A DNA stretch of 57,847 nucleotides, the filler included, from Stramenopiles sp. TOSAG23-6 (lineage: Eukaryota): the NCBI GenBank assembly GCA_900128565.1. It is 3 parts of 3 records of this genome, joined end to end, with 100 filler letters (N's around TTAATTAATTAA, not from the genome) between each part and the next. Parts side by side here need not be neighbours in the genome. Positions count along the whole stretch, not along the records: positions 1 to 19,267 come from LT636051.1; positions 19,368 to 38,584 come from LT636053.1; positions 38,685 to 57,847 come from LT636054.1. One strand, written 5' to 3'. Position numbers and translations under genes: made by a program. The notes beneath the pieces are model-generated. The model made no database searches and was not told the origin of the DNA. It worked only from the letters and a program-made list of their open reading frames with translations. This document shows positions 1 through 57,847 of the stretch, one piece after another (position 1 is the first letter of the stretch; each line of letters starts with the position of its first letter).

Positions 1-53
1 TGTACCTAACAAATTTTAGTTTTTTTTTTTTGAAATATTTTTCCAAAATACAT
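1..53 (+). other. Family intron, 3' part (ends CAT)
   Basis: TGTACCTAAC...GAAATATTTTTCCAAAATACAT. Confidence 0.8.
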
Positions 54-306
54 GAATTTCCAATCATTCGTTTTCAAAATAGTGATAATTTAGTTATTGC
101 AATTATTGATAAAGAAGGAGGCGAAGATAATAAAACAATAGTTTGGCTACTAAGACGTTCTTATCACCACACAAAAGATTCTGAGTGGGAAGCGACTGGT
201 ATTTCATTTGATGAAGATACTGAAAACCGTGCTGAACCAAAAGTTTCATTTTATGGTAGCGTCACTGGAACTCCGTCAACATATCCTGCCGATCGTGGCG
301 AAAGAT
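54..306 (+). CDS. Open exon between two family introns; link to the TBC exons uncertain
   Basis: Stop-free frame EFPIIRFQ...YPADRGER. It joins the TBC frame only if the next intron ends at 404 (AC). Confidence 0.5.
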
Positions 307-406
307 GTATGTTTTATTTTGTTTCAAATTCGATTTTTTTTTCTTACGAAATTTTGTACCTAACAAATTTTAGTTTTTTTTTTTCAAATATTTTTCCAAA
401 ATACAT
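307..406 (+). other. Family intron, GT-AT (406) or GT-AC (404)
   Basis: Full family consensus; frame is kept only with an end at 404. Confidence 0.7.
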
Positions 407-3400
407 AGTGGCAAAGACTTTAATTGTCTTCAAGCATCATTGCGATTCTTTTCTTTATTGTTGCAGTACCATGATCCTAAACTCGCTAAGTTTCTTGATC
501 AATACAAACTGCCTCCATTTATGTATATACGTTTTTAACATTCATTTTTGACCTACATTTTTTGTATAGAAATTTTTTGTACTAACGAATTTTTTTTTTA
601 CTAAAAAACTAAAAAAAAAATATTTTTCATAATACATGCAACGTCATGGTTCCTTACATTATTTTCACACTCTTTAAGTTTGATCCATTTATTTCCTGTT
701 TGGGATTTTTACATTATTGAAGATAATCCATTTGCACACCATTTTCTTGCTGTGGCAGTCATGTATGTTTTCATCATTTAACCCTAATAACCCTAAATTA
801 TTTTACTATGAAAATTTTGTACCTGACGATTTTTTTTTTATTTGTACAAAAAAAAAAATATATTTTTCACAATACATGATTGATCTTGGAAGGTCTCTAA
901 TGTCAGCTGAATCTGAAACGGATGGTAGACTCAATGTGTCTAGAGATTTACTTATGCAACAATTACTTCGATGTCAGAAACGTATGTATGTTTTAGTTTT
1001 TTTTTTTGTATGAANTTTTTTTTCGTACGAAATTTTGTACCTAACGAAATTAATTTTTTTTTTTTGAAATATTTTTCCAAAATACATGAGGGTCGAAGGT
1101 CTTGGTCGTTGTGGTGGTCATATATGGTTTCATCATTCATTTCGATTTAATTTTTTTTCATACGAAATTTTGTACCTAACATTTTTGTTTTTTTAATATT
1201 TTTAATTATTCATGGTAGTGGTGTCCGAAGATTATGTGAATCCGCGAGACATCTTTTAGAAACAACTCCTCGATCGTTCACTGCGTTACTCAATGAAGTA
1301 TGTTATTCCAAATCTCAACCTAGTGCTACACTATTGAAAAAATTAGAAAGATTACCTTGTCTTGAAGTCCTACCGGGAGAACTTGTACGCAATGCAGAGG
1401 AACAACAGCGCGAGAGAGAAGTGGAGGCAGGAAATATTGTTCAAGAGATTGAACGTATATCAGTCACAAATGTTGGAGTCTCCCAAGTTGCTTCGAAATG
1501 TAAGTATTTCGTAATGGACTGTCGAAGTGTTGCATCATATGATGCTGCCCATTTCTCTATATCTTATCGATTATCGCCTGATTTACTTGATGAAGGAATG
1601 GGAGAACTCTCTGAAATTTTAGATAGTTTCTCAGCAATGAAGGAATGTAATTTATGCTTTGTCGGTGATGCATTGGATTTAAATAAAAAGGAAAGTGTAG
1701 GAAGCAAAGCTCGTACATTCATAAAAAAAGGATGTAGGTTTTTATCATCAATTTCAAAAAAAACAAAATGTATGATAAAAATGTTGTATCTGACAAACGT
1801 TTTTTTTACAAAAACAAATTATTTTTTCACAATACATGGAAACGTGGATTTACAGATAATGACGAGGATGATGATGCTGTAAAATGGGGCGTTTCGACAA
1901 GATTCGCATTGCTCTTTTTACAACGTGGATTTTCAAAGGTAGCTATTGTACCTGGTGGTTTTCCAGCTTGTTTGCGGAAGGCAGGTAGCAGAAGCTCAAT
2001 ATTTGTAAATTGTGAACCAATTGAGAGTGTAAAATGCGACAATAATGTTGGTATGGTGGAGAAATTTTTAGGTGATCATTGGGGTGGAGTAAATAAGATG
2101 TCTTCCATCAAATCTCTACGAAGAAAACAAACACCATTGCGAAATGCAACCGATGCTAATGCTAGATATGCATGGAAATCTTTTAAAGGTCTTTTTATTA
2201 GTGAAAAAACAAAACTAGCATTTCCAAAAATTCCTCTTCCACCAATAGTAACACCAATATCTTCATCTGTGCTTGCAATAAAATGGAAAGATGAAGATGA
2301 TTCTATAGACAAATTTGTACTTGAATATAAACAAGTTCCTTCAGATGGTGATGAGGTCATGACAAAATTCGGTAGAGCCACATTGTGTTGTATACGTAAA
2401 GATGGTATCGCAACTCATTCGTTACATGATTGGAAACTTGATAATGGAGGAATTGTAAATGTGTTTATACCTTTGAGAGATATATGTTTCTCTCCACCAA
2501 AAGTGATTGAGAAATTGCATGATAAAAATAGTGTTGTGAAATGTAAGCCAACGATAGTAAAAATGGAAAATGATAAATGTTTGCCAGATGATCGTTTCGA
2601 GAGTAAGGAAATTTCAAACAAAAAAGTCGTAGAGGTTTCTGAATCCAAAGTAGAGGAAATAAAAACTTTTTCTGTACAATCGAAAATAGATACTCGTCCT
2701 ACTACTTTGGAGAGCAGAAAACATTTTCGTTTGGAAACATCAACTGAATGGCTTAGAGCAAATAATAATGTTCCGATAATTTCAAAATCTAATATCGGAT
2801 TGCCTCACAAGCCTTTTCTTTTAGGCTCTGCTAAAGAAAAGGCAACAACAAAGAATCATACATTTTCTATATCTGTACCATCACCTTTGCTCCCTACATC
2901 TAGGTACTGTGTTCGATTGAGTTCTCACAATTCACAAGGCTGGAGTCATTGGTCATCCCCATCACTACCTGTTTATACTTTATCTCTAGAAGAAGAGGAG
3001 AATCGTGCAAATGAGAGAAAACGAAAGCAAGAAGAAAGAAATGTTGCTTTACAGGCACAAGTAAATATGGAAAGTCGTGAAGGATTAGTATTTTCTGTTG
3101 TATTTGATAGTGGACCTTTAGGTTTGTCACTCAAAGGTGGGAGCATTGGGGGTACCTCTGTCGCTAGAACTAAACCTAATGGTCAAGCTGAATGTCATGG
3201 GGTACAAGTTAATGATGTTGTTGTTGGTGTTGGAGATGAAACTATACTAGACGAAGATTCAGTGGAGATTGTTGTAGCGAAAGTTAAAGCCCATTCTCGA
3301 CCAGTAAAAATTAGATTTTTGCGAAAGACAACACAAGTATCCTTGAATACAAACACAAGTATGTCAAGACTGAATAGAAAGTGTCAAAATGGAAAGAAAG

Positions 3401-4218
3401 ACTCCACAGTTGATGAAAATTCTCAAAAGAAGCATACTGAAAAATCTGATGCAAGTTCATCGAAATTAGCAAATAGCCGAAATTCATTTGGTATTTCTTT
3501 TGGAAAGTTAGGAGGAAAATTTAGCAAGTTAAAGAATAAAATTATGAAAACTGAAACTCATCCTACAAAACGTAATGGTGATGTTGTAGGTCCTTCAGAA
3601 AGAGGCCTCATTAATATCTCAAAATGGCGCGAAGACCCAAAGAAACGTGGTAAATATAAAGATGTAGAAGATAGTAAAATGGAATTCTTTTCATGTTTAT
3701 CGGCTGCTGATGCTTCATTGGAGGGTGCAGATATTGATGATTCACAACGCTGGTTAGTCGTCAATGACTCTTACGTAATGTTTGTTTTATCTTTTTACAA
3801 ATTTCGAATTTTTTTTCGTACGAAATTTCGTACCTAACGATTTTTTTCAAAGTATTTTTCACAACACATGTGTATTTTAGAAGATTCGGAGTATTCTGGA
3901 TGGGGGTCACTGGAAAATAAGTTTCAGTATCGAAATCTTGTAAAAATTACAAGTAAAAAATTAGCAGAAAATGTTTTAATATTTTATATTAATTGTGTTG
4001 ATGATCATGGTCAAGTAGAACTAAAAACATTTTTTTATACAATTGTTAATGCCATGAAACGTCGAGATTGTGTTGCTTCGATTATGACGAAATATAAAGA
4101 AGCGGTACAGAAGGAGAGTTGTCTGAATGATTCCACTACAAATAAGAAATATAAAGAAGTGGTACAGAAGGATAGTCGTCTGAATGATTCCACTACAAAT
4201 AAAAGTTTATCGCCGTAA
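407..4218 (+). CDS. TBC1D23: TBC1D23-like protein, 5'-partial: TBC domain C-half, rhodanese-like, split FN3-like, PDZ, C-terminal PH-like domain. Exons 407-526, 638-762, 878-985, 1088-1121, 1214-1733, 1838-3779, 3870-4218
   Basis: Spliced translation gives LLQYHDPKLAKFLDQYKLPPFMYATSWFLTLF, LLETTPRSF, YFVMDCRS (rhodanese), FDSGPLGLSL (PDZ) and LVVNDSYVMCILE...LVKITSKKLAENVLIFY. These match the TBC1D23 domain order. Confidence 0.85.
527..637 (+). other. Family intron, AT-AT
   Basis: Removal gives PPFMY|ATSWF (TBC YAxxW). Confidence 0.8.
763..877 (+). other. Family intron, GT-AT
   Basis: Removal gives AVM|IDL. Confidence 0.85.
986..1087 (+). other. Family intron, GT-AT
   Basis: Removal gives QKRM|RVEG. 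Confidence 0.8.
1122..1213 (+). other. Family intron, AT-AT
   Basis: Removal gives GGH|GSGVRRL, in frame with TTPRSF. Confidence 0.8.
1734..1837 (+). other. Family intron, GT-AT (diverged)
   Basis: Removal gives KKG-W-KRG, linking the 182-aa and 689-aa ORFs. Confidence 0.8.
3780..3869 (+). other. Family intron, GT-AT
   Basis: Removal gives SYVM|CILE; contains the perfect palindrome GTACGAAATTTCGTAC. Confidence 0.85.
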
Positions 4219-4435: not shown

Positions 4436-7400
4436 TTATAACCATGTAGAATCATCTGGGTTATTATATTCATTTGGAGATTGTAGTTGACTTCCATCTA
4501 TTGTATCTCCTATTTCATTTCTATCAACATCTTCTTCTTGATTGGTGCTTTCATTCTTTTGAACTTGCTTATCAGTTTTACCAAGAATTCCCATATCATT
4601 ATTTATAGGAACTACCTTATTACTGCGCTTGAAAGAAACGACTCTAGAGGGATACTGAAGCTGATGTGTATCTCTATCATTATCTTTTAAATCTTCATCT
4701 TTTATATCATCATCTACTTCCTCTTTCAGTTCATCCAGTAGTTTTTTTCTACGACGTTGTTTATGTACTAGGATTTTGTTACGACGTGTTTTTTTTTTTT
4801 TTTCGATCTGTTCTACCGTTTCGTTTCCTAAAATTTTTGCTTCTTTCAGTAATCGCTTGTGGCGTCGTCCTGCTTTTAGCAATTCAAAGAAGCTTAAAAA
4901 CCCATCATTATTCTCGTCAAATTCTTCCAATGCAAGTACATAAGGTTCGAAATATTTATCTACCCTCAAACGTATATTAGGCAACATATAAAACAGGAGA
5001 CACGCTCCATAGACACCTGCAATAATATTACCGATGATGAGAAAATCACCCAGTTTTTCATCATTAGAAGTAAACAATTTGCCAGATATTAGAAGGTTTG
5101 CATAGAATGTGATAAATATCATGATTACTAGAATCATTTGGAGAATAAAATCGGCAGTCCGTTTATATGGCCTGACCCCTGTAAGTATTGTAAGAAACAA
5201 CGCAGCAAGAGTAACACCAACCGCATTTTGTTCAATTCCTTTATCGAACGCAGTCAACATACCAGTCATCATTGCCTTTCGAACCATTTCAACAAACTCA
5301 TACCACCATATCTGTGAACGATAGCATAAAAAAAGGGAACCATATGTACTAATGACTCTGTGGTGCATATGGAGTAATTCTTTATTCTTGGATATTGCAT
5401 GAAACATCTCATTCGGCATATCCTCTTCTGCAATTAGCCAATGACGGACTTTGTATAATGATATTAAACCACAAAGAGGAATTCCTATTACATAAAGAAA
5501 TATACAGACGGTTGCTGTCAGGCGAAGTATATCATAATTTGGACCGTCGCATTCTATACTAATATCAGAAGTGAGATAATTCTTTCCATTTACAGAGAAA
5601 CAATTGAATATTTGAAAGCATCTGACGGTTAATCCTGTAATGAATTGTGATTGTATTTTAACAATGTGTAATGTTAGATTAAGATTAAAAATTTTCATTA
5701 TAAGATAGTTAAAAATAGATCGAATGCAAACTTACCTGGATACATGATAAATATTATTGCCCAAAGGACCCTCCTCGCGTTCATCTTTGCAGATTCACGC
5801 GAAAAATTAGCAGAAGGCTTACAGATAAGAATTAAAGACGCCGTTACAAACGCAAGTGATACCATTATAGCCATCAGTGGCGGCAAGGACATATGCGCAT
5901 AAAATTTTTCGGCGAAGTTTGTAGAAAAGTGACACATGTCAAAATAACCGAAGATCTTCATAAAATCCATATTAATAAAATTGCAATTCGTGCAAAATGT
6001 TTCAAATTTGCTAGGAAATGGTTCGCCTGTAGTGTGTCTCGTTTGGGATATTACTTGTAGATATGATATCAGAAGTTTAATTGTGGCTAAAAGCTCTGCC
6101 CACATATGAACTATACGATGTGACATATGATGACCTAATTGAACCTTCTTTCCATGTAAGCTTTTTCGTCGAAGTCTCTTACGGTGTTCCTTTGCTGATA
6201 TTGGCTCCCGTCTCACTTTCATACTCATTTTCCCCATAAAATCTTTTCTACCGTGTTTTGTGCTTATTTTTCTTGCTAAGGTATGTGCACTGATCGAATG
6301 TTGTCTCAATATTTGGAGTTTCTCTGCCTTAATTTCATCAACATATAAGCCTGTCTTATTTGCCTTTTCCATATTTGCTAAAACATTGTCCTGCATTATC
6401 GCAAATTTTGCTGCCAATTTTAGTTTGTGTTGTATGGATATTCTTTTTTTAGCAGCAGCATCACTAAATACAACTTGATCGGCTGACATTGTCATTATGA
6501 GTAATAACACTATATACAGTGTACAACCCATGACAATAATAACGGTATTCATCGGCGATTGTTTTTCAGGAGAAGAACTACAGTCTCTGCAATTTATATG
6601 ATTTGAATCTAGAACCCAGTTTTCACCATCTACACAACCATGTTTCCACTTCAACTGACATTCGTGTGCACAGACACCAGTATCTACCTCGTTACATTTT
6701 TCTTTGATACATTTATCAAATTTCGTCGTTGAGCAACATATACTGCATAATGGTCCAGTATGACCTTGAGCGCAATTTTGCCAATCATTACCACCAAGGC
6801 AAATTTCAAGAGCAGCGGACTCAGGAACTATATACTTTCCACAATTAATTGGACCATTTGTTGAGAATTCATGTGGTCGTAGTTTTGCGTTATCGTAGAT
6901 TTGCCAGAATCCTGGTGCAAGTGCCATTTTTCTTGTATTTACTTTTGTAAACAATGAAATACCTTTAATACAATGTTTTCTATCAGCTTCCGTCGTATTG
7001 GTGGATACACGAGCTGCTATTTCGTCACACGCACATAATGTGCCTACAGGACATGGTGAACATTGGAGTTGAAATGTCTCTTTTTCTTGGAGCATTTCTA
7101 CTGGGATATCGGTGACTGAAGAAACACCGAATTTTGCCAAATCTAAAGACGTCGTAAAGCCACTTGTTTTTCCAAGGTTTTCATCTAAAAGTGGAATTAA
7201 ATGAGCAAAATGCATAGGAGGACACTCACAACGAGAGTGTGTTTGATCGCCCAATTCGAGAAATACACCTGGGCATTTCTCTGGCACAAGTGAACCAGTG
7301 CCACAAAATTCATCTTCCTGACAGGCTCGTATTTGGTCTGCGGACCTACACGAAGAATTTGGTGGGCATACCGAAACATCAAAAGATCCACTTTCACAGT

Positions 7401-10400
7401 ATGCTGCTTCCCCTGTGTCAATTTGACAAGCTACTTTTGTTGATGGATCAGGACAATAATGACCTGCTGGACACGCTCCTCGGGAAGAGGATCCAGCTTC
7501 ACAATAGTAAGCTCTATCCTTTGAAGATGACTGAGCATTATCACATTTAACTTTTGTACTTGGTGTCGTTATATCATTACTGACGTAACTACAGTAGTGC
7601 CCCAAAGGGCAGATGCTACGCACACTACTTCCTTCAGGACAATAATCGCCCGAGCTACATCGAAGTTCGGTATCAGCGTAATTTTGATTTATGGGGCAAT
7701 AATGCCCTTTTTTGCATTTAATTGGTGAACTTCTCAATGGATGTTCAGCAGAACTGCAGTACATCCCTACGCCACAGATTTGTTCTGTCGAAGGGGTCGG
7801 GCAATAATATCCATTTTGACAGACGCCCTGTTCTACATTTGATCCGCTGCAAAATGAGCCAATCTCACAAAGTGTCTTTGAAGATGGAGTGCTACAATAA
7901 TAGTTCTCAGGGCAATTTGATACTTCTTCTTGTCGGTAAGATCGCAAATGTTCGCATGTCTTTTTATTTCGTGCGTGTGCGAGTAGGGTATAATCATTGT
8001 TAATAGCAAGGATACATCTTTCAGTGACGTTGACTAATGTTCCAACTATGAAATTATCACCTTTTCCTATAACAACTGTATAGTGATTGTTTCCGTTTGT
8101 TTTTTTACACCCAGTGCCATTATCACATTCACTAATACAGTTACCTTCCATGTCCGTACAAGATGGGATAAATCTTCCTCCAGTTACTCTCACAATCAAA
8201 TGGGCTGTTGTTTGTGTATTATTGTCACTTGATGCAGTATCCTCGGAAGTTTTAGTCTTGTCGGAAGTTTTAGTCTTGTCAGAAGTTTTAGTCTTGTCAG
8301 AAGTTTTAGTATCCTCGGACGTTTTAGTGTCCTCGGAAGTCTCATCAGAATCAGTAGATGATTCGCTTTCACGACCAACAGTCTTTACAGAAGTTGCAGA
8401 TGTCCTCGGTGTTATATACCCTAATGGAGGTATTATAGGTGCATTTATCACTATTCTAGGTAAATTATCTTCAGCGCAGTTGTTTTCTGTGTCTATAGTA
8501 ATCACTGGATTTATAACACTCCCAACATTATTTACTGAGTAAGTTCCTTTAGGTTTACATAAATCATTTTCATTTTCAAATTGCATTTCGTAGTCACCAG
8601 TTTTATATGGGCCGGGGTTTCCTCCATTGTCTACAACTGTCACAATTAGTTCTGAATTTACAAACTCCAAGGCAAGTTCTGCGTGTCCAGAGTCAATTTC
8701 TTGGGTTACTTGCATATTCCATAAATGAACAGATGTGTCATCCGGAATTGAAATAGATGGTCTTACATCACAGTTTATATCTTCATCCAACATAACAGAC
8801 CCAATATATCCTTCACTATTGACAATAAATGAACCAGATGGATCTGGTGTACATCTCCCTTCATCATTACTAAATACTACATCATATTCACCAGGAACGT
8901 AGTTTCCATGACCTTCATTAATTATACTTATATACTTGATATTGTCGCTGTCGTCAATTGTAGAGCTACCAACACCCGAATTTGTAGAGGTATCACTCCA
9001 CCCAATAACCCCACCACCGCTGATGGCATACAGCGGGTTATTTACATCAAGATCAAAAATTGTAAGGGTTGCTTCCCATTGTACACCGTCGTTTTCACAA
9101 TATCCGCCTCGGGCATCACAACTGGCAGAAGTATGCGTATTACTGCAGTATTGTCCACTAGGACATGCTTGTTGTATTGATTGACCTTCTGGGCAATAAT
9201 ATCCATTTTTACACTCTTGTCGCTCTTGTTCTTGTGCAACTGTCCAGTTTGACTTACTCCAATTTCTCCCTGCAAATACACAATCCTCATTATTTCCTAT
9301 GTCGTCTCTTCCAATACATCTTCCGCATGACCTTTCATCAGTGAAAATAATCATTGATATTTTGTCATCAGCTGAATGATGAGTTATTAATGTTTGACTA
9401 TATCCTCTTTCCACAGTCAAGGTGGAATACTCCCCACTATCCGCATCATTATAAGTTGTTATTCCTTTGACAAGAACTTTTTCCCAATATTTATTTCCAT
9501 TTGTATCAAGAATTGAATTACTGGACTCAATTTTTAATCTACTCCCAATAGATATTGGATAATTATTATCACTTAATATATCCAAAGTGCTACTGTTTAT
9601 CGTTATACTTTCCCTAAGAATAGACGTAGTCAACATACTACACTCACCTGCTGGACATCCCAAACACGCCGTGGGACAGTAGCCACCCTCTACACAACTT
9701 TGGGCTCTTACATCTTTTGAACCTTCAGTACAGTGACTACCAGCAGGACAAATTCTTTTCACTCCTGGGGTTGAACAGAAATAACCCGCTGGGCAAGGTG
9801 ATACCGTTAGGGGTTCCCCGAGTAATCTGTCTTTGCCGCAATATTGACCTGCTGTACATTGTATTAGAGTTTCAGGATTTGGGCAATAATAACCGTCGGG
9901 GCATTTTAATGGCGAAAATACTCCAACTGGACAGTATGTTCCGTTGATTTTACACGGATATTTCTCACTTGATGTGGGACAATAGTGACCCACATCACAA
10001 GGTTTTGGTTCTTCCGAACCCTCACTACAGTAATTGGCACTTACAGGACTTGGCAAAGGCTGATATTTTGTTTCCGACCAATTTAGAGAAATTTTGATGG
10101 CACTTGATTTAGTTCCACAAGGAATTTCTTCTTCAGAATATTCTCTCTTCGCTCGCCATAATTCAGTTTTTGCGATATCGCTCACAAACTCCACTTCTGG
10201 ACTCTGTTTCCAAGCACGCAAACACACATAAGTTTCATCTGGTACATTAGCCCATGTCAAATACCCCCCCACTGGAATTGTTATAGCGTTCTGTTGAAGT
10301 TCAGCATCTTTTGGGACTCCCATTACTGTTCCATGTGAATATAATTTCTCGTTTTCCTTTACGCGTGATAACGACGAATGGATATATATCATATCTCCAT

Positions 10401-13400
10401 TATATACATGTGAAATAGTTGGCGACACGTTTTTATACAAAATGTCGCCTTCGAATAAGTCGGTGAATATCCCCTCTCCGAAATCAATACTTGTCGGGCT
10501 AGTTGTCGTGACAATTCCAATATCTTTAAATGTAGACCCCCTTTGTACAAATATGTGATCACCAGAAACAAAATGTACTCTTGGATCAACACTTACAGCA
10601 ACTAATGACCCACTTTCCATGTCTGTATTCACTTTTACATTGGTTTCACTGGCAGTAAAAAATGTAAGCTCTGATGCGGATACACTAGTAATAATACCAA
10701 TTGCAGTTCCATCCTTTCGATAAGCCATTGTCTGATGATCATCAGAAGTTTGAACTTGTATTCGTGGGTCAACTCCTTCTACCGTGAGCGTTGTTTGCCC
10801 GGCTAGTATCATAGAAGAACCATCGATACTAATTCCGCGTGGTAATACTTTCAATATCGCATTAGTACCGGTATCGTTTCCGTGTGCAGTTGGAAGTTTC
10901 GAGCATTGGCCAATTTGAGTAATTGAAGTAGATGTTATTTCCCTGTTAGTTTCTGCTTTTGTCATTTCTATGGAAATGTCGCCGATTAATATCAAACCTG
11001 GGGCAAGGAAAGAGCCATATTCGATCTGTACATATATCACGTTACCTTCTGGAATCGACTTCACTCGGCCTTTTGTGCGACAAACGTTTTCAGAATTACA
11101 ATTTTGGGTAACCTTTTCGTCAATAGATATTGATTCTGTCGTGGACGCAATTATAATTTTGATGATATTACGAACCTCAAAATTGGCAATTGGTGGGATG
11201 GAACATACTCCACCCACAAATATTATTGGACCTGGTTTGTATCCTGAACCCCCGTTGACTATACTTATACCCTTAATTCCCATGTTCATTATGCGTACAC
11301 CAGTTGCACCCTGTGCAGGTGTGCTACGAAGTCTAAGCTTTTCGAGTGCTCCAACATNAACTAACGTAGGAGTTNCATTTTTATACAAATTTTCACCTTG
11401 ATGAATATTCACATATGGGACCTCAGTCAGTTTTATACTTGTATCTGATGAAGTATCAATTACACCAATTATTTGATGGTCTTTATTATAAATGGTGTCA
11501 CCTGGAGAAAAATGATGATTAACAAAATCTCCGTTGACTTCGAACGTTTTTATCCCTGAGACATCATTAACTGAATATACACTACTAGGTATTATTGTTC
11601 CAAATGTCAGAGTCAATGAACTTTCATCGGAAACGCGTTCTATGCTAAAAAGTGTTCCTATTTCAGAGAAATCTTCTTTAAAAACGCGCACTCCCGGAAC
11701 AAAATCCGCAATATAACAATCGGGGATAGGACTATCATATTCCATTGGCTTCTTTGAGTACACATTCAAAGGATCTCCACCAGAGTAATCTTCATGAATG
11801 ATGAAGTCTTCAGATGATACCTCAATAATTCCATCACTTGATTTTACGGTAATTGATTCTTTAGCTGATAGTATCAAAACCAAATTATCACTATTCAAGT
11901 CCTTTATATACCATTTGTCATTTTGTGTAAGATCCCATCGCTTAGTTTCTCCTTTGGAAATGGAAAAAGTTAAAGTTGCACTGGTTCCTTTTACAGATGC
12001 CGATAAAGATAAATTTGCAGTCATTATTAAAAATGCATTAACACTGTATTTTGTTGTATCCATTACTGTTTCGGTGTATAAGACACAATCTTTGAAAATA
12101 GGAATATCTTTATCTACACTTCCTCTTCCACGAGGGCCCGAATTGTCCACAAAACTCGGACCATAATCCAAATTAGTTGTTGTCCCCCATCCCATGGTGT
12201 CTTCCCAAGTTTCAGTGTCATCTAATCCGAATACCGATGACGCAAGTAATTTATATGAATATAATTTGTCGTCTACTTCAAGGTGTGTTGATACATTTCT
12301 CGTTAAAACAATTTCGTGATTTTGGGTATCACCGTCACTGTCTGTAACTTTCATACTTTTGATTATACCAATATTTCTTCCGTCGCTTCTAAATATATTA
12401 TCACCGATACTAAAATCCTCATACAATTTGCCACCTTGTGTGTAAAGAATGTCAAGAGATGAACTTGCTCGTATGCTAACTTCTGTCTCTATATTCGAAA
12501 AATGAATCTGAGAAACTTCTGCTTTACTGACAATACCAATGTCAGTACCATCACTCTTATAAACATGTTGCCCAGGACGAAATCTTACAATAGATTCGTC
12601 ATTGTAACCTTTGAGCTTAATGATATCAAAGTTGCCTTCACTGCAAGGAACAATTGTAGTGTCATTTATACATTTATCAACTTGTACTTTGGCATCACTC
12701 TGTAATTTCATTTTCCGCTTATATACAAAAGATGATCCGTCAATGATTGATGAATTCATAGTAACAAACTCAATTGACGAAACACTAGTTGCCTTGATGA
12801 CCCCAATCTCATCATTATATTTTGTATATGCGCGATCTCCTGGACTAAAGTGTATACTGGGATATACATCATATGAGCAACCCAGAGTTATACTTTTTGG
12901 AATATAACTGTCAGTCAAGGACTGGAAAAACACTTCCTCTACTTTGAAAATATTATGACCATTTGCTAAATCTACGATGCTAAAATAAAAAGAGGTACTA
13001 GAAATAATAGTGATTTTACCTTGAGTACAGCAATGTCTATATCTTATAGATGAAGCTTCGGTAGAGTTTCTGCAACACCCTTGATATATAAATGAATTTG
13101 TCTCTAACAATTCTCTCCAGTCATGAGATACATCAAAATTTAGAATATAATAAAAGATATTATATTGTCTCAGTTTAGTTGGTGTGATGGAAGTAGGATG
13201 ATATGCATATAATTGAGTCCCACCATGAATTTCTGATAATCGACTCGATGTTAGCGTAATTGTTTGCCTACAATTCATATCCGTAATATGGCCACTTCCT
13301 GTGTAAGATTTCATGGGTTTACTTGAATCGCCTCTTTTTACACGACTTAACCTTGTAAACACATTACTTTGACTACAATTACCCAGAAGATTTGAGTGTG

Positions 13401-19232: not shown

Positions 19233-19267
19233 GAAGAAGGTATATTAAGGGAGAGAAACTTTCACTT

Positions 19268-24895: not shown

Positions 24896-24955
24896 TATTG
24901 TTTGGGTGATCTGTCGATATCATTATTATTGTTTGGGTGATCTGACGATATCATT
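24896..24955. repeat. 31-bp-period tandem duplication in the divergent USP/kinase intergenic region
   Basis: TATTGTTTGGGTGATCTG(T/A)CGATATCATT twice. Confidence 0.85.
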
Positions 24956-38584: not shown

Positions 38585-38684
38585 NNNNNNNNNNNNNNNN
38601 NNNNNNNNNNNNNNNNNNNNNNNNNNNNTTAATTAATTAANNNNNNNNNNNNNNNNNNNNNNNNNNNNNNNNNNNNNNNNNNNN
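38585..38684. other. Artificial contig linker (N-run, TTAATTAATTAA, N-run)
   Basis: Same linker as at 19268. Confidence 0.95.
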
Positions 38685-39700
38685 GGGTCATCTTTTCGAG
38701 GTTTTAACATCCTATATGCTTCCATGGTTTCTGCATCCATTTGTGAGGAGTTTCCATTGAATGAGTTGTACTTACGACTTCTTTCAGATGCAACACCGTT
38801 TCTTTGAAAGTTTTTTTCCTTCTCTAAAGCTATTTTCATTTTATCTTGGTCCAATTTTATATCTTCTGATTCACCATATAGTGTTTTTTCGTTATTAACA
38901 GGTTTATTAGAGACCTCCGATGAAGTTGATACCTTTGACAACAATTTTCGTTCCATTACAGTTTTTGATGCCATTTTCGCACGAATTCCAGCTTCACCTG
39001 TACAATACGATTTCTCAACACATTGTTGGCAACATCGATAACCCCACTCTTGTGTTTCTAAATCAAACCAAGATCCCCAAACACTTTTATGATTATTAAT
39101 TAAAACATCTTCTTCATACTTGGTTCGTCGAATAGTCTCAGTGCTAGTTGTTTGACCAATAATACGCCCTTCAGAATTATATTGCAGTTGGTGTTCAGTC
39201 TGACCAAGAAGTAAAGATCTATCTGGAGCACGCAGTTTAGACTGATCACCATATTTTTCAAGTATTTTTTCAGACCGACTCGTTTTTATTTTGTTTTTCC
39301 TTTCTTGGAACTGCTTTTGTAGTACTGCTACTGCTGTAGGATTGCCACTCGTATTAACTCCACTGCCACGACTATAACTTTCCCACGCAAAACTTTGAGA
39401 TTTTAAAAAACCTACGCTTTCACCAGAAACACGAGTTGCATTATCTCCTGAATATACAGCTAGTTCTTTTGGTATATGTGGAGTAGGATTACCTCTCATA
39501 GACCGTGACTTTGGATCGTAGTGAGCAGAGTTTGGATCAAGATTTCGTAAGTACTTTGGAATAGATCAGAATCAGAACCATAAACTGTTGATTGATAGTC
39601 TTCCGGTTTTTTCTTGTCACCAAATTTGGCATCTCGTTGCTTAATTTTTTGACGACGAGATTCAGCTTCAGCATCATTAAACTTCTTTATAGTTCTTTTA
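38685..39700 (-). CDS. SLU7: SLU7 second-step splicing factor, central/C-terminal fragment; inverted and internally disrupted in this assembly
   Basis: PKYLRNLDPNSAHYDPKSRSMRGNP, GDNATRVSG, FAWE, ILEKYG, KYEEDVLINNHKSVWGSW, WGYRCC..SYCTG, MEAYRM..RKDD. The frame breaks near 39563. Confidence 0.85.
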
Positions 39701-41669: not shown

Positions 41670-42047
41670 GGTAAGACTTTTACAAATAAAGAAACTTGCA
41701 ATTCAAATAACGAAGTATCTAATGCTTAAAATATTTTATCTGGGAGAAGCTGGTATATATATACAAAAGGATATAGCAGACACACGCGATGATTCTAGCT
41801 TTACTACAAGTAGCCTAGGAAGGTAACACTCTCTCGATCGTGTGAAAAATCTTTTTTATTACGTTTTGTTGACGTGTCATGACAGAAAAGACTGACTTCT
41901 TGCAATTAATTGGGACACATGTGTACAACACACTACATCGGCTAGCTACTACGTATAGGTTCTACTAGTCCTATTTCAATTAGTTTTGTACCTAAAACTT
42001 CTTAAGGGTCTGTGTGTGAGTTCATGATGCATTTTCAGAGTAGAGGA

Positions 42048-47130: not shown

Positions 47131-50100
47131 ATGAGCCAAAGTTGTCTCATCATTGGTGGTGGTGTAGCGGGTGCTTGTCTCAGTCGAACACTGGCTGCAC
47201 GTGGTGTCGCGGTAACACTCATTGAAAAATCAGAGCTACTTTGCTCCGGTGCAACTTGGCATGCTGCTGGTTTGGTCACTCGGTTTGGCGGTAGTCCCAA
47301 GCTGAAAAAGATTCATGTCCGATCACTTCAAATTCTAAACGAATTGCACGACGAAAGTGAGAATGGCATTAGTCTTCATACACCTGGTTCTATACGAATA
47401 ATTGAAAAGGGTAACCCCGATCGCCTCAAAGAGGCCCATCAACATGTTGCAATGGCTGCTTTGTATGACGATCCGGAATTTCCATGTGAAATCATTTCTG
47501 CGGATGAGTGTGGAGAAAGACATCCTCTATTAGACTGTAGCAATGTAGAATGTGGTGTTTGGACTCCAAATGATGGTGATATTGATCCCACGTCACTAGT
47601 TAATGCTGTGTCCGGGAAAGCAAAAGCAGATGGTGCAAAATATATACTTAATACAGAAGTTGTGTCTATTGAACACCGTCAAGGAGGTGGATTTTGTGTC
47701 AAATCTGCATGTGGACAAGTATTTGAAGGTGATATGCTTGTCAACGCAGCTGGTCTTTGGTCTAAACAGATAACAGAAATGGTTGGTGATGGTATGGTAC
47801 ACCCAGGTTTCATTATTGAGCACCAATATGTAAGTTTCCATGTGCTTTTTTTTTTCGTGGTTTTTGTGATAAATTTTATTTTTCTTTTACAAAGAAAATT
47901 CCATACCTCACAATAATTGTTTTTGTGTGATGTATTTTTTACCCAATATGCAATCACAGAAGAAATTCCAGAAATTGCAGCACTACTCGCTAAAGGTAAA
48001 AGAGTGTACGTTTCTAATTTAATTTTTTTTTTGTACAAAATTTTGTACAAAATTTTGTACCTAACAATTGTTTTTACTAAAAAAATACTTTTTCACAATA
48101 CGTCCCTGTTTTACGCGATCTCAAAGGTTCAAGTTATATTCGACAAGAAAGATCAGGTATATTAGTCGGGCCTTATGAGGAACGGACTGTATTACGGAAT
48201 AAACCTGATGATCGAGGTACCTGGAAGAATGGACCTCCTAGCGATTGGGGGCATGAGCTATTTCCTGATGCACTTGATCGTATTGAGGGTAACTTACTTT
48301 CTGCGATGGAACTTTGTCCAAGTCTTGCTGAAGTTGGATTTATCAATTGTACAAATGGACCTACAATTTGGACTGGAGATTCACTTGCTCGTGTAGGTCG
48401 AACACATAGTACGTTTTCATTATAAATTTCATTTTTTGTGTATAGAAAATTTTGTACCTAACGACTTTTTTTTGAATATTTTTCACAAGACATTTCCAGG
48501 ATATTTCGATTTCAATACACTTACATATGGTATCGCTCAATCTCCAGCACTTTCTGAGTATTTAACTTCAATTATGCTTGATGGCGAACAACCGTTTGAT
48601 GCTGCAGCAAATTTCGATCCAGTGCGGTATGGCTCTTGGGCAACAGCAGGAACAGTTATTGGTGATGCATATACAGAAGACGTTGTACTTGACACATATG
48701 GAAAAAATAATTGTATTGCTTATCCCTTTGAGAATCGAAAAGCTGGACGTTCTCATCTTGTAGAAATACAAAGCCCACTATACCCCAAACTTCTAGAACA
48801 GGGTGCTCGTTGTACATTTAGCTTATCTGGTGTTGAAGTACCTGCATGGTTTGAAGGTATTTCATCTGCTTCTTCTATTAGTGAAATTCCTATAAAACCA
48901 GTTGAAAATGAATTAACGTTTGATCATCATGAGTGGGCACCACACGCAGCTGCTGAGTCTCAACATGTCCTACATTCAGTGGGTATCCAATATGCATCGT
49001 TTTCTAAAATAAAAGTATCTGGGCCTCATGCTCGTGATTTTCTAATGCGTGCTACAACAAATATTATACCCAAAAAAATGGGACCATGTAGGCTGACATA
49101 TGCTTTGACACCTAAAGGAAAAGTTTTAGCAGAGTTTTCAGTCACAAAGACTGATGTATGTTTTCATCATTGATGTAAGATTTTTTGTTTTTTTTCATAA
49201 GAAATGTTGTACCTAACAAATTTTAAACTTTAAAAATATTTTTTCAGAGTATATGAAGATGAGTATTATTTGGTTGGTTCTCGAGATTACGCAGAGCATG
49301 ATACATTGTGTACATTTTCATCATGAATTTCAAAATTATTATTCAAATTTATTATTTTTTTACCTATGTGGATTTCAATTTTTGTAACATACCTAACAAA
49401 ACAATCAAATTTTTGAAATATTTTTTTACAATTTACGGTTTCGTTCAATTCTTCATCATGGTTCAAATCACTCTGATTCAAAAGAAGATAATTGGAAATT
49501 GTCTTTAGGCCTTTCTAATTGTTTAGATGTAAAAGTAGAAAATATTTCAGATGATGTAGATATGTATGTTTTATTTTTTTCAATTTCGAATTGTTTTTTC
49601 CGTACGAAATTTCGTACCTAACAAATTCTACAAAAAAAAATATTTTTTCACAATATATTTTACATTTGGCTGGCCCAAAAAGTCGAGAATTACTTGGAGC
49701 TATATCCCCTGCAGTGCTTGATATTCCATTTATGAATATGAAGTCACTTGAAATTGCAGGTCAGTTAGTAAACGTATTTCGTGTTTCTTTTTCTGGTCTA
49801 GTTGGGTTTGAAATTCATTGTCCTCGTAATTCTAGTAGTGTGACTGCCGTGTATGATGCATTACAAGAACATCCGTTGGCAACAAAAGAAAAATTAAATC
49901 TTCGACCTTTTGGAGGATATGCTTTAAATGCACTTCGTGTTGAAGTAGGATTTCGTGTAAAAGCTGATTTGGATTATATGCACTACAAAGAAGCTGGTAT
50001 TGAACCATTTACTTCAATGAAAAAATCTATGGGATTTATTGGTAAAAATACAAAATCATTGGAAGATATCACAAAAAAACCTGCAATGTTTCAGGTCAAT

Positions 50101-50551
50101 ACTGAGAGTGGTTATGAATGGAGTATTCCTAGCGATTGTCCAATGTATGTTTCATTCTTCATTTTTACCCATTTTTTTTTTTCATAGAAAATTTCATACC
50201 TAACATTTTTTTTATCCCAAAAAAAAAACAATTTTTCACAATACATTCGGGATCCATCAAATAATGATGTAGTAGGCTACACAACAGGATCTGCCTTTGG
50301 TGCTCGAACAAATAAAACGATTGCCATGGGTTACCTACATGTACATTTTCATCATTTACTTTTACCTATTTTTTTACTATGAAAATTTTATACCTAACAA
50401 AAAAAATTAAATGTTTTGAAATATTTTTGTAAAAGTACATTCTGATGTATCAAAGAACAAATTATATGTAGAATCGTATGGTAAGAAATGGAATGTTACG
50501 GTGCTCTCTGAACCACCTTCAACCGTTACTGGACGAGATGGTGATTTTTAA
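47131..50551 (+). CDS. DMGDH: Dimethylglycine dehydrogenase-like FAD oxidoreductase with a GcvT domain; 9 exons
   Basis: IIGGGVAG, SGATWHAAG, DGDIDP, EHQY-AITE, PVLRDL..SSYIRQE, HLAGPKSRELL, RVSFSGLVGFEIH, ALNALRVE, VGYTTGSAFG. Confidence 0.9.
47830..47949 (+). other. Family intron, GT-AT (GTAAGT donor)
   Basis: Removal gives EHQY|AITE; CCAATAT precedes both junctions. Confidence 0.85.
48006..48103 (+). other. Family intron, GT-GT (or 48004-48101 GT-AC)
   Basis: Either register gives KR-V-PVLRD. Confidence 0.8.
48409..48493 (+). other. Family intron, GT-AT
   Basis: Removal gives GRTH-I-PGYF. Confidence 0.85.
49156..49254 (+). other. Family intron, GT-AT
   Basis: Removal gives TKTD|EDEYYLVGS; two upstream AGs are out of frame. 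Confidence 0.9.
49310..49436 (+). other. Family intron, GT-AC
   Basis: Removal gives HDTL-W-FRS (conserved HDxxW). Confidence 0.8.
49564..49658 (+). other. Family intron, GT-AT
   Basis: Removal gives DVD-I-LHLAGPKSR. Confidence 0.9.
50145..50246 (+). other. Family intron, GT-AT
   Basis: Removal gives DCP-I-RDP..VVGYTT. Confidence 0.85.
50341..50440 (+). other. Family intron, GT-AT
   Basis: Removal gives AMGYLH|SDVSK. Confidence 0.85.
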
Positions 50552-50873: not shown

Positions 50874-52079
50874 CTAAACCAAAAAGACATCATCATCAAC
50901 AAGAGCATCTTTCACTAACACTTGATTCAGATATCTTTTCGGAAATCTATTTCTAATCTGTGCTCGGATTAATTTCCCTGTATATTTCCTTCTATTTGGA
51001 ATAATTTTTTTTGACATTATATCTGCAATACCCTTAGGTGTTAGACGTGGTTTCATTTCAAATAGTTCTGTGAGTTTTGCTATTTCAGCGTCACTCCAGA
51101 AATCTTTACGAGGACGAGGAAATTTAGGGGCATCAGGAAATCTAGCATAAATCTGGTTACATATCGCACTTACTGTATATTTCCTTCGATTTGGAACAAG
51201 TTCTTTTGACATTATATCTGCTATATCTTGAAATGATAATTTTGGCCTCATATTATTCAATTTCTTGAGCTCTTCTATTTCAGTGTCACTCCAAAAATCT
51301 TTACGAAGAAACCTAGGGGCATCAGGAAATCTATTATGAATCTGTGAACAAATAATTCGTGCTGTATATTTCCTTCGATTTGGAACAAGCTCTTTTGACA
51401 TTATATCTGCTATATCCTGCAATGATAGCTTTGGCCTCATATTATTCAATTTCTTGAGCTTTGCTATTTCAGCGTCACTCCAAGAATCTTTAGGAGGAAA
51501 TTTAGGGGCATCAGGAAATCTATTATAAATCTGTGAACAAATCACATTTACTGTATATTTCCTTCGATTTGGAACAAGTTCTTTTGACATTATATCTGCT
51601 ATATCCTGGTATGATATTTTTGGCCTCAGATTATTCAATTTCTCCAGCTTTGCTATTTCAGTATCACTCCAAATAACACACCTCTTCCTCTTAGCCATAG
51701 TGTTACAAGAAGAAGGTAGGCAGTTGATTTGTAACATTCTTTGCAAACGTCTTTTTTTTTTTTCTCGATTCAAGTTTTCACGTTCAATTCCTTGTTCTAT
51801 AGATTTTTGTTGAGAAGAAAATTGATTTGCCTCATGTGGATTATTCGATGAAAGCATATTGCTACAAGGAGCAAGAGCCAAACATGGATCTGGATTTGGT
51901 GTTTCACCATTATTTTGCTCAGAAGAACCACTACGCCATTGTAGTGTGAGCTTCCGCCTTCGAATCACTGGAATTTTCATTTCTGCTAGGAGTTCAATGA
52001 ATTCTGTCTGTGGCATTTGAAGAATTTCCTCAATTTTGCACGAATACTCTTTAGCAATATCATCAAGCGTATACTCCAT
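50874..52079 (-). CDS. Protein with a SAM-like N-terminus and four tandem ~63-aa Myb/SANT- or GcrA-like helix-turn-helix repeats
   Basis: Four units of WSDxEIxxLxxL...IADIMSKExxPNRRKYT...I.NRFP; 189-nt DNA period. Confidence 0.7.
   Translation of the reverse strand: MEYTLDDIAKEYSCKIEEILQMPQTEFIELLAEMKIPVIRRRKLTLQWRSGSSEQNNGETPNPDPCLALAPCSNMLSSNNPHEANQFSSQQKSIEQGIERENLNREKKKRRLQRMLQINCLPSSCNTMAKRKRCVIWSDTEIAKLEKLNNLRPKISYQDIADIMSKELVPNRRKYTVNVICSQIYNRFPDAPKFPPKDSWSDAEIAKLKKLNNMRPKLSLQDIADIMSKELVPNRRKYTARIICSQIHNRFPDAPRFLRKDFWSDTEIEELKKLNNMRPKLSFQDIADIMSKELVPNRRKYTVSAICNQIYARFPDAPKFPRPRKDFWSDAEIAKLTELFEMKPRLTPKGIADIMSKKIIPNRRKYTGKLIRAQIRNRFPKRYLNQVLVKDALVDDDVFLV
50930..51675 (-). repeat. ~189-bp coding tandem repeat, 4 copies
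   Basis: CTGTATATTTCCTTC..TTTGGAA and TTTGACATTATATCTGC each recur four times. Confidence 0.9.
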
Positions 52080-52279
52080 CTTCTAAAGATTAAAGTGCAA
52101 ACCAGTATCTACTACGGTACATATAGTAGCTGATTGGACTATTATTCCAATTTTTGATTTTTGAAATGTCAACTTTTGTGAGTCTTTGAGTCTTTGACCA
52201 GTCACTCACTTGATGGCCGCGGCCAAATCCATAACCTGGTACGGAGTATTACAGGTACTAAAAAGAACATTATTTCAAG

Positions 52280-56007: not shown

Positions 56008-57291
56008 CTATTCAGACAAATCTAAAGTACAACCAATAAGAATNTGATCTGATGGATTTTCCTCGTTTGGGCAGAGTGGTTGAGAGTGATCAGGATATGN
56101 TTCAGTTGCCTGAGGCGTTTCCAATACTTCTTCAACACTCCAGTGATCTGAGATAAATACATAGTCAATTGTATCCGTAAATGCATTTGGTTTCTTTTCA
56201 CCTCCACTAACAGTATGATTTGTCCAAGAAGGTTCATGGCCTTGATATTCCATATACGCCGATCGAAANGGAAATTCTAAACTAGGCTTCCATGAAACAC
56301 GTGCTTTCGCAATTACATCTTCTGATATATAAGCAGGATCATCTGGGCTTATTGAACCACTNGTGATCAGAGCATATGGACCATCAACTGGTTTAATATT
56401 AAAATCACCTAATAAAACATAAGGCTTGATAATATCACTATCTGCAGTAGCAAGGTCNATGACACGTTGTGCACAAAGTTGGGTGTGGATTGTCATAATT
56501 GGTTGTTGCCAGTAACAACATGGCATGTGGTACGTAGATACGATGAAAGAAGGGCCTGAGGACACTTTACTACGGCTTCGTGTCATTCTACCAGAATACC
56601 ATGAGCTACCAGAACTTGAATCTTTACCCCGTAGCTCAAATGATATCATATTATTATATCTTTTACGTGAGTACTCAAATGAACATANTTTTTCGACAGC
56701 TTTTGGTTTTGACCATACGAAGAATTCTTGCAAGCCAGGAACTGCGGCTAAAACACATAANAATAGTGTTATGAAAAGATNAAAGTCCNTTACCCTTTCA
56801 ACTTCTAGTATCAAGGACGCAGCAACAGTTACTGGCAATACTATNCTAGTAATAGTTTCGCCAATTGATANAAACCGTNTTACAGATGAACATAATGNAN
56901 TTCCTTTCGTCTTTTTCTTATCAGTGTCCTTTAACATTTTGATTGCTGGAGACTGTCCAACTCTGAAAATATCAGCATTCACTAGTTCATACTTTTCCAT
57001 AGGAAAAGCAAGAGAAACACCCATAAATCCACTCCATTGACTTCCATAAAGACTATCGCAGTAATAGTAACCATTTGATAAAAACAAAGCGTGAAACCGT
57101 CCTGACCATTCCATACAAACTTCTTGTAGGGCAATGATGGCACGTCTATTCATTTGTTCTTGTAGCTTTGCTACGATACGCTCATATCGAGTTTCTGGAT
57201 CACAGTCTTCAGGCTTACAGTGTAGAAACCANCCCGAATTCCCAAGAAAAGGGGAAAGAACATTGTATGAGACAAAATCGTGATGCGACAT
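56008..57291 (-). CDS. EEP-superfamily phosphatase/nuclease (CCR4/nocturnin/Angel-like) with an internal hydrophobic insert
   Basis: SYNVL, ALQEV, TYHMP, LLGDFN, TIDYVF, PSDx. Confidence 0.85.
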   Translation of the reverse strand: MSHHDFVSYNVLSPFLGNSXWFLHCKPEDCDPETRYERIVAKLQEQMNRRAIIALQEVCMEWSGRFHALFLSNGYYYCDSLYGSQWSGFMGVSLAFPMEKYELVNADIFRVGQSPAIKMLKDTDKKKTKGXXLCSSVXRFXSIGETITXIVLPVTVAASLILEVERVXDFXLFITLXLCVLAAVPGLQEFFVWSKPKAVEKXCSFEYSRKRYNNMISFELRGKDSSSGSSWYSGRMTRSRSKVSSGPSFIVSTYHMPCCYWQQPIMTIHTQLCAQRVXDLATADSDIIKPYVLLGDFNIKPVDGPYALIXSGSISPDDPAYISEDVIAKARVSWKPSLEFXFRSAYMEYQGHEPSWTNHTVSGGEKKPNAFTDTIDYVFISDHWSVEEVLETPQATEXYPDHSQPLCPNEENPSDXILIGCTLDLSE

Positions 57292-57554
57292 TTGCTCACC
57301 TATAACTAACTATACTTTCGTTGCGCACTTTTTGGCGTGTCGAAAAATTTATGACACGCGCTGGCCACGAGTCGAATTTTTATCAGCAATTTTTATTTTA
57401 TCTCAATTATATTATTATAGTAGCAAGTAGAGCTACCGGTCATATGAACAACTGATAGCAAAATAAATGAGATTTTTTTTTATTCATTATATACTTTAAG
57501 TCACACCTGATTTGAGATTCTTCTTAAGACTTATACTAGTAATTTTTTTTAAAA

Positions 57555-57792
57555 TTAGTATGAGAAAACAGGTACAAAATTTTCGGCGAGTAGCTTTTCA
57601 GTGAGAGACTCCTCATTTTTGATAGTGGTCTCGATATCTGTCACAAACATTGGCTCATCAGCAACGCCACACATATTTTTGCCCATCTCAAGGTAAATAT
57701 AACCTTTTTCTCCCCAATCCGTTGCCCAACTGTTACGTACGATCCAGTATGGAGTTACATTTTCCATGTTTACACCAACAATTTGTACACAG
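57555..57792 (-). CDS. Last exon of a papain-family (C1A) cysteine protease
   Basis: (H)CVQIVG...PYWIVRNSWATDWGEKGYIYLEMGKNMCGV. Confidence 0.9.
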
Positions 57793-57847
57793 ATGTATTG
57801 TGAAAAAAAAATGTAGTCNAAANTTNTTAGGTACAAAATTTCGTACG
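57793..57847 (-). other. Family intron, 3' part (ends CAT)
   Basis: CGTACGAAATTTTGTACCTAA...TTTTCACAATACAT|C TGT GTA CAA. Confidence 0.85.

Follow-up and report, generated by a model that had tools for sequence, protein, structure and literature searches.

Introner-like insertions ending in AT are probably spliceosomal introns of a compact marine stramenopile genome

How does a eukaryote express genes that are interrupted by many similar insertions, each of which begins like an intron with GT and ends in AT instead of AG? The question arises from a stretch of Stramenopiles sp. TOSAG23-6 (GenBank assembly GCA_900128565.1), referred to here as the window and comprising 57,847 bases of three contigs split by runs of N at 19268–19367 and 38585–38684. 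An initial annotation, made from the sequence alone, had described 32 complete insertions of about 100 nt in seven genes and took GT-AT to be the default intron of the organism. The insertions are probably spliceosomal introns that make up one repeated family, similar to introners, in a marine stramenopile with a compact genome. That they are introns spliced from RNA was correctly recognized in the annotation, which left out that they form a single repeated and apparently mobile family and that a U12-like reading has to be weighed. The GT-AG rule is among the most constant features of eukaryotic genes, and lineages that break it show what the chemistry of the spliceosome really needs.

The family was delimited with an iterated nhmmer profile seeded with four copies. 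The 32 matches at E<=0.01 (down to 3e-15) correspond to 31 elements, 28 complete and three cut at contig ends, with one element matched twice. Breaks in open reading frames (ORFs) allowed three diverged members to be added by eye (21352–21460, 19543–19642, and 49310–49436) and also exposed one canonical GT-AG intron at 5635–5735; a brute-force search for frame-keeping boundaries was uninformative because the exons are short. In total, the window holds 31 complete family introns of 85–131 nt, three cut copies, and the canonical intron, and the earlier count of 32 complete introns in seven genes across all three contigs holds when both kinds are taken together. The 34 family copies are clumped, all of them in seven genes and none in ~35 kb of other ORFs. 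Their absence from intergenic DNA says nothing, as only ~6% of the window is intergenic (by arithmetic from the ORF table). The proposal that GT-AT is the default intron of the organism, resting as it does on one window with this uneven distribution, could not be upheld.

Several lines of evidence indicate that the insertions are introns. All 34 copies are oriented in the sense of the host ORF (p = 6e-11 under random orientation), in agreement with the annotation. Upon removal, long frames open in gene A (a TBC/rhodanese/PDZ protein, 1150 aa), gene B (a USP-type protease with EF hands and DUSP, 1491 aa), gene C (a CaMK-like kinase, 341 aa), gene E (a SET protein, 616 aa), and gene F (a dimethylglycine-dehydrogenase-like enzyme at 47131–50551, 864 aa to the stop), while gene D, a C5 DNA methyltransferase, yields an open frame of 579 aa, or 569 aa from the first Met. 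The family register restores the frame in 30 of the 31 complete introns, the exception being A1 (the letter in such names gives the host gene). Lengths divisible by three occur in 8/31, which is no excess, and the intron phases are about even. Pfam profile coordinates continue from exon to exon, as seen for DNA_methylase in gene D (1–126, 139–165, and 284–315) and for the order of DAO, FAO_M, GCV_T (1–99 and 142–236), and GCV_T_C across the exons of gene F. Every one of the eight junctions in gene F and the five in gene D is collinear with the sequences compared (25 orthologues for gene F, 30 homologues for gene D), and the codon split by D4 encodes a Cys shared by 29/30 of the latter (RE|CARLxGFP). 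The motifs quoted in the annotation (LTPRE-C-ARLQGFP, EHQY|AITE, ISK|GYLEFHSPYW, and MY|ATSW) are all restored by removal. A GC-rich, intronless metagenome orthologue (L001) is collinear across F1–F3; a search of metagenome contigs with exon 1 of gene F recovered just two such GC-rich (68–69%) intronless orthologues and no family-bearing relative. A protein search with short RNA-derived fragments across B1 and B2 returned 46 candidates, none of which scored.

Whether the insertions leave the RNA or the DNA can be seen from assembled contigs, not reads, that were placed on a stretch of the window from a poly(A) metatranscriptome (X7), a non-poly(A) RNA sample (X6), a third RNA run (X9), and an independent DNA metagenome (X3). 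Many parts of this stretch are without RNA cover in X6, X7, and X9, from which no conclusion is drawn. Most contig joints connected one copy of the repeat to another and were discounted as artefacts. In X7, record 19 (339 nt, depth 6.3) joins position 23121 to 23230 and skips the 108-nt intron B1 (23123–23230, minus strand) exactly. The match of X7 record 17 ends exactly at 22068, where the 5′ splice site of B2 (21973–22067, minus strand) is predicted, and its 42 unplaced letters are the following 32-nt exon plus 10 nt. The X3 DNA contigs (records 4 and 5) retain D3 (26790–26883), D4 (26540–26670), and D1 (27277–27385), all on the minus strand. It is thus supported that the insertions leave the RNA and not the DNA, as the annotation had supposed; removal from RNA of a sequence present in DNA is seen at one junction (B1), and the other 30 are drawn from the collinearity of ORFs and homologues. 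The family is also very abundant in the X3 community, where summed contig depth reaches 10^2 to over 12,000 in element bins vs ~3–8 for unique DNA, with thousands of element-like contigs (6430 contigs in all on 17 kb); these are sums over organisms and not copy numbers.

In the register of the family, 24 of the 31 complete introns are GT-AT (the doubtful A1 included), four are AT-AT, one is GT-AC, one is GT-GT, and one is ambiguous between GT-AG and GT-AT, essentially matching the tally of the annotation (23 GT-AT, four AT-AT, one GT-AC, two ambiguous, and two GT-AG). The GT-GT copy, F2 (48006–48103, plus strand), gives the product of a GT-AC intron at 48004–48101 after a 2-nt slide. The first intron base is G in 27/31 and A in 4/31. 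Only one family intron can end in AG, and that one, B7 (20440–20537, minus strand), is ambiguous in that it is equally in frame as GT-AT when ending at 20443.

The consensus motifs described in the annotation are present in the family. The 5′ consensus is |RTAYRTTTT after an exon that ends in AT, the 5′ site is GTAYGT in most family introns, and positions +5/+6 are RT in 31/31 and never CC. A palindromic box, TTTCRTAYGAAA, lies within the introns, and a branch-like box of the CTAAC type, TACCTAAC, is found in 29/31 at 32–53 nt before the intron end, followed by T runs that are also present at -15 to -11 from the 3′ end. The introns close with a block of ~18 nt (consensus ATATTTTTYACAATAYAT|, next exon G) that has CAC/A at -10 to -7 without a T tract after it. 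In 8/31, an AG lies within the intron downstream of the branch box, and in four introns, D3, F3 (48409–48493, plus strand), F4 (49156–49254, plus strand), and F8 (50341–50440, plus strand), an AG that would break the frame, itself confirmed by the orthologues, is bypassed 4–7 nt before the cut (5 nt in D3 and F8, 4 nt in F3, and both 7 and 5 nt in F4), so that nearby AGs are not used, as had been proposed. Because nearer AGs are passed over and at least one other AT separates the branch box from the AT that is used, the extended 3′ block appears to set the splice site.

These signals suggest how the introns may be removed. Each copy would supply its own signals, consisting of the 5′ RTAYRTTTT, the TTTCRTAYGAAA box, the TACCTAAC box, T runs, and ATATTTTTYACAATAYAT, and the spliceosome would form a lariat at TACCTAAC and cut the intron out of the pre-mRNA precisely, starting at the first R and stopping after the final AT, or after AC in one or two copies, with the frame restored. 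The extended 3′ block, rather than the first AG downstream of the branch box, would fix the 3′ cut. In spliceosome structures, the first and last bases of the intron form a G..G contact; in the family, the last base would pair with the first as G..U, A..U, or G..C, all of them Watson-Crick or wobble pairs, and these could replace the G..G contact. A 5′ GTATGT together with TAC(C)TAAC and T tracts is the classic yeast-type U2 layout, which makes a major spliceosome with tolerance for a final U or C the first choice. As in U2-type introns, the family has a GTRNGT-like 5′ site and a YTRAY box before a pyrimidine tract; the GT(GC)-AG termini of that type are found in the canonical intron and, the ambiguous B7 apart, not in the family. 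It is possible, and put forward here only tentatively, that the family represents a second mode of 3′ splice-site recognition, in which AG gives way to an element of ~18 nt with YAU (or YAC) at its end, pairing of the first and last bases takes the place of the G..G contact, and thousands of mobile introners constitute most of the introns. The machine would then be a major spliceosome whose second-step or U2AF-type factors are altered or, alternatively, a minor spliceosome that was re-tuned and expanded beyond that of Physarum.

It is less probable, and on balance rather unlikely, that the family is a massively expanded class of U12-type introns with co-evolved signals, as in Physarum, with the major spliceosome retained only for rare GT-AG introns. 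The yeast-type layout speaks against this, as do the perfect TACTAAC held by A2 (527–637, plus strand) and the termini, among which no A..C pair occurs. None of the 31 introns has the CC at +5/+6 of the defining 5′ motif [G/A]TATCCTT, and the U12 branch motif TTCCTT[G/A]AC, which belongs close to the 3′ site with no pyrimidine tract between, is matched by TACCTAAC at 6/9 positions but at 32–53 nt from the end; the family does not match the defining 5′ motif, and its fit to the branch motif is mixed. Additionally, minor introns are a rare minority in almost all genomes, whereas the family accounts for 31 of the 32 introns in the window. Where the resemblance is real, it lies in the purine at +1 with TAY after it, the long invariant 5′ motif, and a last base other than G. 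GT-AT and AT-AT are also known variants of the type and rank with the most frequent non-canonical U12-type boundaries in Physarum, making up 17% and 8%, respectively, of 1,014 (preprint 10.1101/2020.10.12.336362). The CAC/A of the 3′ block falls at the distance of the Physarum U12 branch motif, 9–10 nt before the cut, while TACCTAAC matches the TTCCTTAAC consensus at 6/9 positions and, in 26/29 introns, is no more than 45 nt from the end. Blastocystis, which is also a stramenopile, has 253 minor introns, of which 77% are AT-AC (PMC10639083).

There is only a slim chance that the true register is AT-AC, two bases to the left, and that GT-AT is an artefact of where the boundary was drawn. Such a reading draws on the exons that end in AT (21/31), 15 of which can be written as AT...AC introns with an identical product, and on A1 and F5 (49310–49436, plus strand), which need a cut after AC. 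At B1, where the upstream exon ends in TT, the RNA junction fits GT-AT (or TA-TG) and excludes an NN-AC register, which would here be TT-AC. The GT-AT cut at F3 gives a junction codon for Ile, and the 25 orthologues have 15 I, 5 L, 4 V, 1 T, and 0 F at this position; the left-shifted register gives Phe where 24/25 have I, L, or V. Weaker hints for GT-AT come from D3, where the upstream exon ends in GT, and D5 (26295–26403, minus strand), which follows GNAVTPPVIE and an exon ending in GA, as the shifted register would place a Met found in 1/30 and 0/29 homologues, respectively. The intronic AT is also steadier (29/31) than the exonic AT (21/31). At F5, the conserved Trp (23/25 orthologues) is obtained only as GT(49310)-AC(49436), and this AC aligns with the AT of the family. 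The informative cases favour GT-AT, and the register is real where testable; at the level of single residues, the orthologue alignments confirm one GT-AT cut (F3) and one GT-AC cut (F5). The AT-AC register named in the annotation as a possible refutation is thus excluded at B1 by RNA and at F3 by the Ile codon, with A1 and F5 on its side.

Slimmer still is the case for removal without a spliceosome, guided by structure as in euglenids, hemistasiid diplonemids, and the hairpin introners of Amoebophrya, or for excision from DNA as in ciliates, since the non-canonical ends, the AT/AT direct repeat, and the 4-bp terminal inverted repeat on which it could draw are set against a predicted folding strength that does not exceed that of shuffles (mean z -0.34), pairing of at least 3 bases between the ends in only 7/32 introns, uniform rather than diverse termini, a 5′ site, branch box, and T tracts that are kept even in the most diverged copies, and a DNA metagenome that keeps the elements while poly(A) RNA is without one of them. 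Two related candidates were also rejected. A stem between the ends, sought as co-variation of 5′ +4 with 3′ -6, has only 2 of 11 GTAC introns with a matching GTAC, and a TA-bounded internal eliminated sequence of the ciliate type fails because DNA contigs retain the elements and because the Paramecium-like TA...TA register fails by frame arithmetic and has no general fit.

The reading as spliceosomal introns of one introner-like family draws further on the similarity of the copies to each other. Median pairwise identity is 0.64 vs 0.53 in shuffles (shuffle maximum 0.63), and the best pairs, at 0.80–0.88, lie in different genes. Spacers outside the signals define two subfamilies, with 7/32 and 12/32 introns (4% and 2.3% in shuffles). 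A perfect or near-perfect 12-nt palindrome (TTTCGTACGAAA or TTTCATATGAAA) is located ~31–50 nt from the 5′ end, just upstream of the branch-like box, in 15/32 introns vs 0.45% in shuffles, and as a palindrome at the DNA level it hints at a protein-binding site of a mobile element. The exon before the intron ends in AT in 21/31 cases (background 0.094, p = 4.5e-15), irrespective of phase, and the exon after it starts with G in 21/31 (p = 2e-8). The family may have moved, as a mobile element, into AT|G sites, with the exonic AT as the copy of the target site; insertion at AT|G that leaves a 2-nt copy fits, and a splicing preference or spread by reverse splicing fits equally. The mirroring of the intronic AT by the exonic AT within one repeated family is what makes the introns introner-like. 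Copies outside of the window add little, in that the family profile run over 33 loci gave two weak partial matches only, the element core motif had 0 matches in viral contigs, and a 17-mer of the motif had 31 single matches in prokaryote genome contigs, about chance level by our own estimate. Within one subfamily, A3 (763–877, plus strand) and D1 share a CCCTAA-like stretch, the telomere-like AACCCTAA...CCCTAA, at the same place near the 5′ part.

It should be noted that a number of observations weigh against the reading as a mobile family of GT-AT spliceosomal introns. With regard to mobility, the terminal inverted repeat is just 4 bp (GTAT/ATAC), and among the nine introns with a non-AT upstream exon end the 3′ dinucleotide copies the exon once only (F2), which together leave target duplication a weak reading. 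No near-identical (>90%) pair or empty site is present among the copies in the window, so that mobility is an inference. With regard to splicing, direct proof from RNA consists of one junction and one contig end that is merely consistent, and an intron-less allele in the RNA library is formally possible. Unspliced X6 contigs reach into C1 (25805–25894, plus strand) and through D3, and bins bearing the element are deep in all three RNA runs, from which it follows that retention, pre-mRNA, or DNA carry-over exists. A scan of the window with Rfam at gathering thresholds found no small nuclear RNA gene or other match. With regard to the register, an upstream exon that ends in AT, as in 21/31, means that GT-AT, TG-CA, and AT-AC registers give the same mRNA, and at B1 the TA-TG register is not separable from GT-AT, from which it differs by a one-base slide. 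Finally, A1 (307–406, plus strand) is nominally GT-AT from profile and ORF but fails as such, with the frame needing 307–404 (GT-AC) or 309–406 (AT-AT); a cut at the AG after its branch box does not cure the frame either, as arithmetic shows.

The canonical intron H1 (5635–5735, minus strand) bears on how far the 3′ splice site has changed. Recognized from ORF frames, it joins two long ORFs in frame as GT-AG and reads CAG|GTAAGT...TCTAAC...ACAG|G. Since this textbook intron coexists with the family, AG recognition is kept in this genome, and broadened describes the acceptance of 3′ splice sites better than replaced. U, and rarely C, is accepted as the last base, but in the annotation's wording, a re-specified or relaxed 3′ site, re-specified is too strong with H1 present. 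A family-like CACAATTCAT lies 5 nt before the AG of H1, where a cut after AT would be out of frame, and H1 may be a family member that gained an AG. It is weakly family-like as a whole, with 64% identity to its best match, which is at the edge of the shuffle maximum.

Among known systems, introners offer the nearest general comparison. They are short, similar introns with their own splice signals in unrelated genes of Micromonas, Aureococcus, and a large number of further eukaryotes, most of them aquatic (PMC9860276, PMC12130899, PMC11282704, PMC7789003). The family likewise consists of many short and mutually similar copies, all in sense, with their own signals and a short flanking repeat, and shares sequence beyond the splice signals across unrelated genes. 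Unlike the introners of Micromonas and Aureococcus, which are described as having canonical splice motifs (PMC7789003), 30/31 members of the family do not end in AG. The target-site duplications of introners, as described, are 3–9 bp, whereas the family has at most a 2-nt AT, and neither an autonomous partner nor presence/absence polymorphism was seen for it.

In its logic, the family seems closest to the transposon-derived introns of Fritillaria, by analogy only. In the tunicate Fritillaria borealis, <10% of introns are GT/AG, with AG-AC and AG-AT common, and an exonic trinucleotide from insertion mirrors the 3′ splice site (PMC11282704), much as exonic AT mirrors intronic AT here. These introns are attributed to modified U2-type splicing, in which the paralogues of U2AF are divergent (PMC13326754). 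Fritillaria has lost the 5′ GT, whereas the family keeps it in 27/31 with only the last base changed; the family is also uniform, has an 18-nt 3′ motif, belongs to a protist and not an animal, and does not have ends of the Fritillaria type. Similarly, frequent non-GT-AG ends and short border repeats are shared with the introns of euglenids, some diplonemids, and the marine protist Amoebophrya, in which >60% of introns are non-canonical (PMC7789003). These types, as described, have diverse ends and strong pairing (inverted repeats of 8–20 nt in Amoebophrya), and the uniform ends of the family, without predicted end-to-end structure, argue against removal of the euglenid, diplonemid, or Amoebophrya type. 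The main texts of the literature searched, MAST-3 included, described no lineage with GT-AT as the rule, in keeping with the annotation, which knew of none; the main texts on MAST single-cell genomes likewise make no mention of unusual splice sites. In the family, introner-type spliceosomal introns have a real and well-supported variant that has apparently gone unreported. With it the introners gain a non-canonical member. The family also bears on the making of introns by transposons and, with the 5′ GT and a yeast-like branch box kept and the last base turned from G to U, is a cleaner case of 3′ recognition in the second step than Fritillaria, Amoebophrya, or the euglenozoans.

The unusual ends also have consequences for public data. 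Two public proteins are identical to exons in the window, and their source label begins with GSMAST32, which we take to denote a MAST-3-type marine stramenopile. The model of gene F (P0121, 791 aa) is wrong at all eight junctions, where it runs on into introns, leaves out codons, and stops short at F7, and it also lacks 7 residues inside exon 4. In a second model (P0001), five internal stretches of the uninterrupted ORF of mitochondrial IF-2 (42006–44843) are spuriously deleted, with 743/746 aligned residues identical. Based on these errors, protein sets and metatranscriptome mappings are likely systematically wrong wherever the family sits, and the affected data concern an abundant group of uncultured ocean grazers.

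The remaining copies are distributed as follows. Gene A, on the plus strand, opens with the 3′ remnant of a family intron truncated at the contig end (1–53, nhmmer model positions 51–92). Its complete introns were placed by profile and ORF and include, besides A1, A2 (AT-AT, with removal restoring FMY|ATSW), and A3 (GT-AT), the GT-AT introns A4 (986–1087), A6 (1734–1837, 5′ GTAGGT), and A7 (3780–3869, 5′ GTTTGT) and the AT-AT intron A5 (1122–1213). Gene B, on the minus strand, carries a 5′ part cut by the contig end (19368–19422, from nhmmer), two introns not detected by the profile and known from ORF breaks, B8 (19543–19642, GT-AT) and the diverged B5 (21352–21460, AT-AT), and, from profile and ORF, the ambiguous B7 and the GT-AT introns B6 (21201–21294), B4 (21614–21716), and B3 (21850–21940). 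Removal of B6 restores the QQDAQE...HEDL spacing of USP. The GT-AT introns B2 and B1 are each based on the profile and an RNA contig.

Gene C, on the plus strand, has two introns from profile and ORF, the GT-AT intron C1 (ISK|GYLEFHSPYW), which follows an exon ending in AG, and the AT-AT intron C2 (25969–26078). C1 is 90 nt without an in-frame stop, and the plain ORF at 24941–26026 reads through it; if retained, it would add 30 residues to the C-lobe of the kinase. All five introns of gene D, on the minus strand, are GT-AT, with D5, D4 (splitting the Cys codon of TPRE|CARLQGFP), D3, and D2 (27065–27182) based on ORF and homologues and D1 on profile and homologues. A 47-nt tandem duplication within D4 (26548–26646, 2.1 copies, 94% matches) doubles the branch-like box, which is here CCTAAG and not CCTAAC. 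The single intron E1 (45917–46010, minus strand, GT-AT, profile and ORF) lies in the SET-domain gene. Gene F, on the plus strand, was resolved from ORF and orthologues and contains, in addition to F2, the GT-AT introns F3, F4, and F8, and the GT-AC intron F5 that escaped the profile, the GT-AT introns F1 (47830–47949, EHQY|AITE), F6 (49564–49658), and F7 (50145–50246). The last copy, a 3′ part cut by the contig end (57793–57847, minus strand, from nhmmer), lies in the cysteine-protease-like gene G.

The genes of the window are eukaryotic and densely packed in an AT-rich, compact genome, with a G+C content of 30–41% and isolated single Ns throughout; a scan for transfer RNA genes in the window found none. 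Other genes include mitochondrial IF-2, PNKP, and a fragment of SLU7 (38633–39565, minus strand; Pfam Slu7 E = 4.8e-54, profile positions 91–253), the start of which is cut by the contig end. As SLU7 is a second-step factor involved in the choice of the 3′ splice site, this fragment deserves a closer look in a genome where splicing occurs at AT. On the minus strand lie two very long ORFs without interruption, one of 4537 codons (5698–19311) with no Pfam domain across 4500 residues and one of 2428 codons (28761–36047) with IQ and ankyrin repeats only. An ORF of 402 codons (50874–52082, minus strand), which has weak HTH_32-type matches only, encloses a 189-nt tandem repeat at 50978–51673 (3.7 copies, 84% matches).

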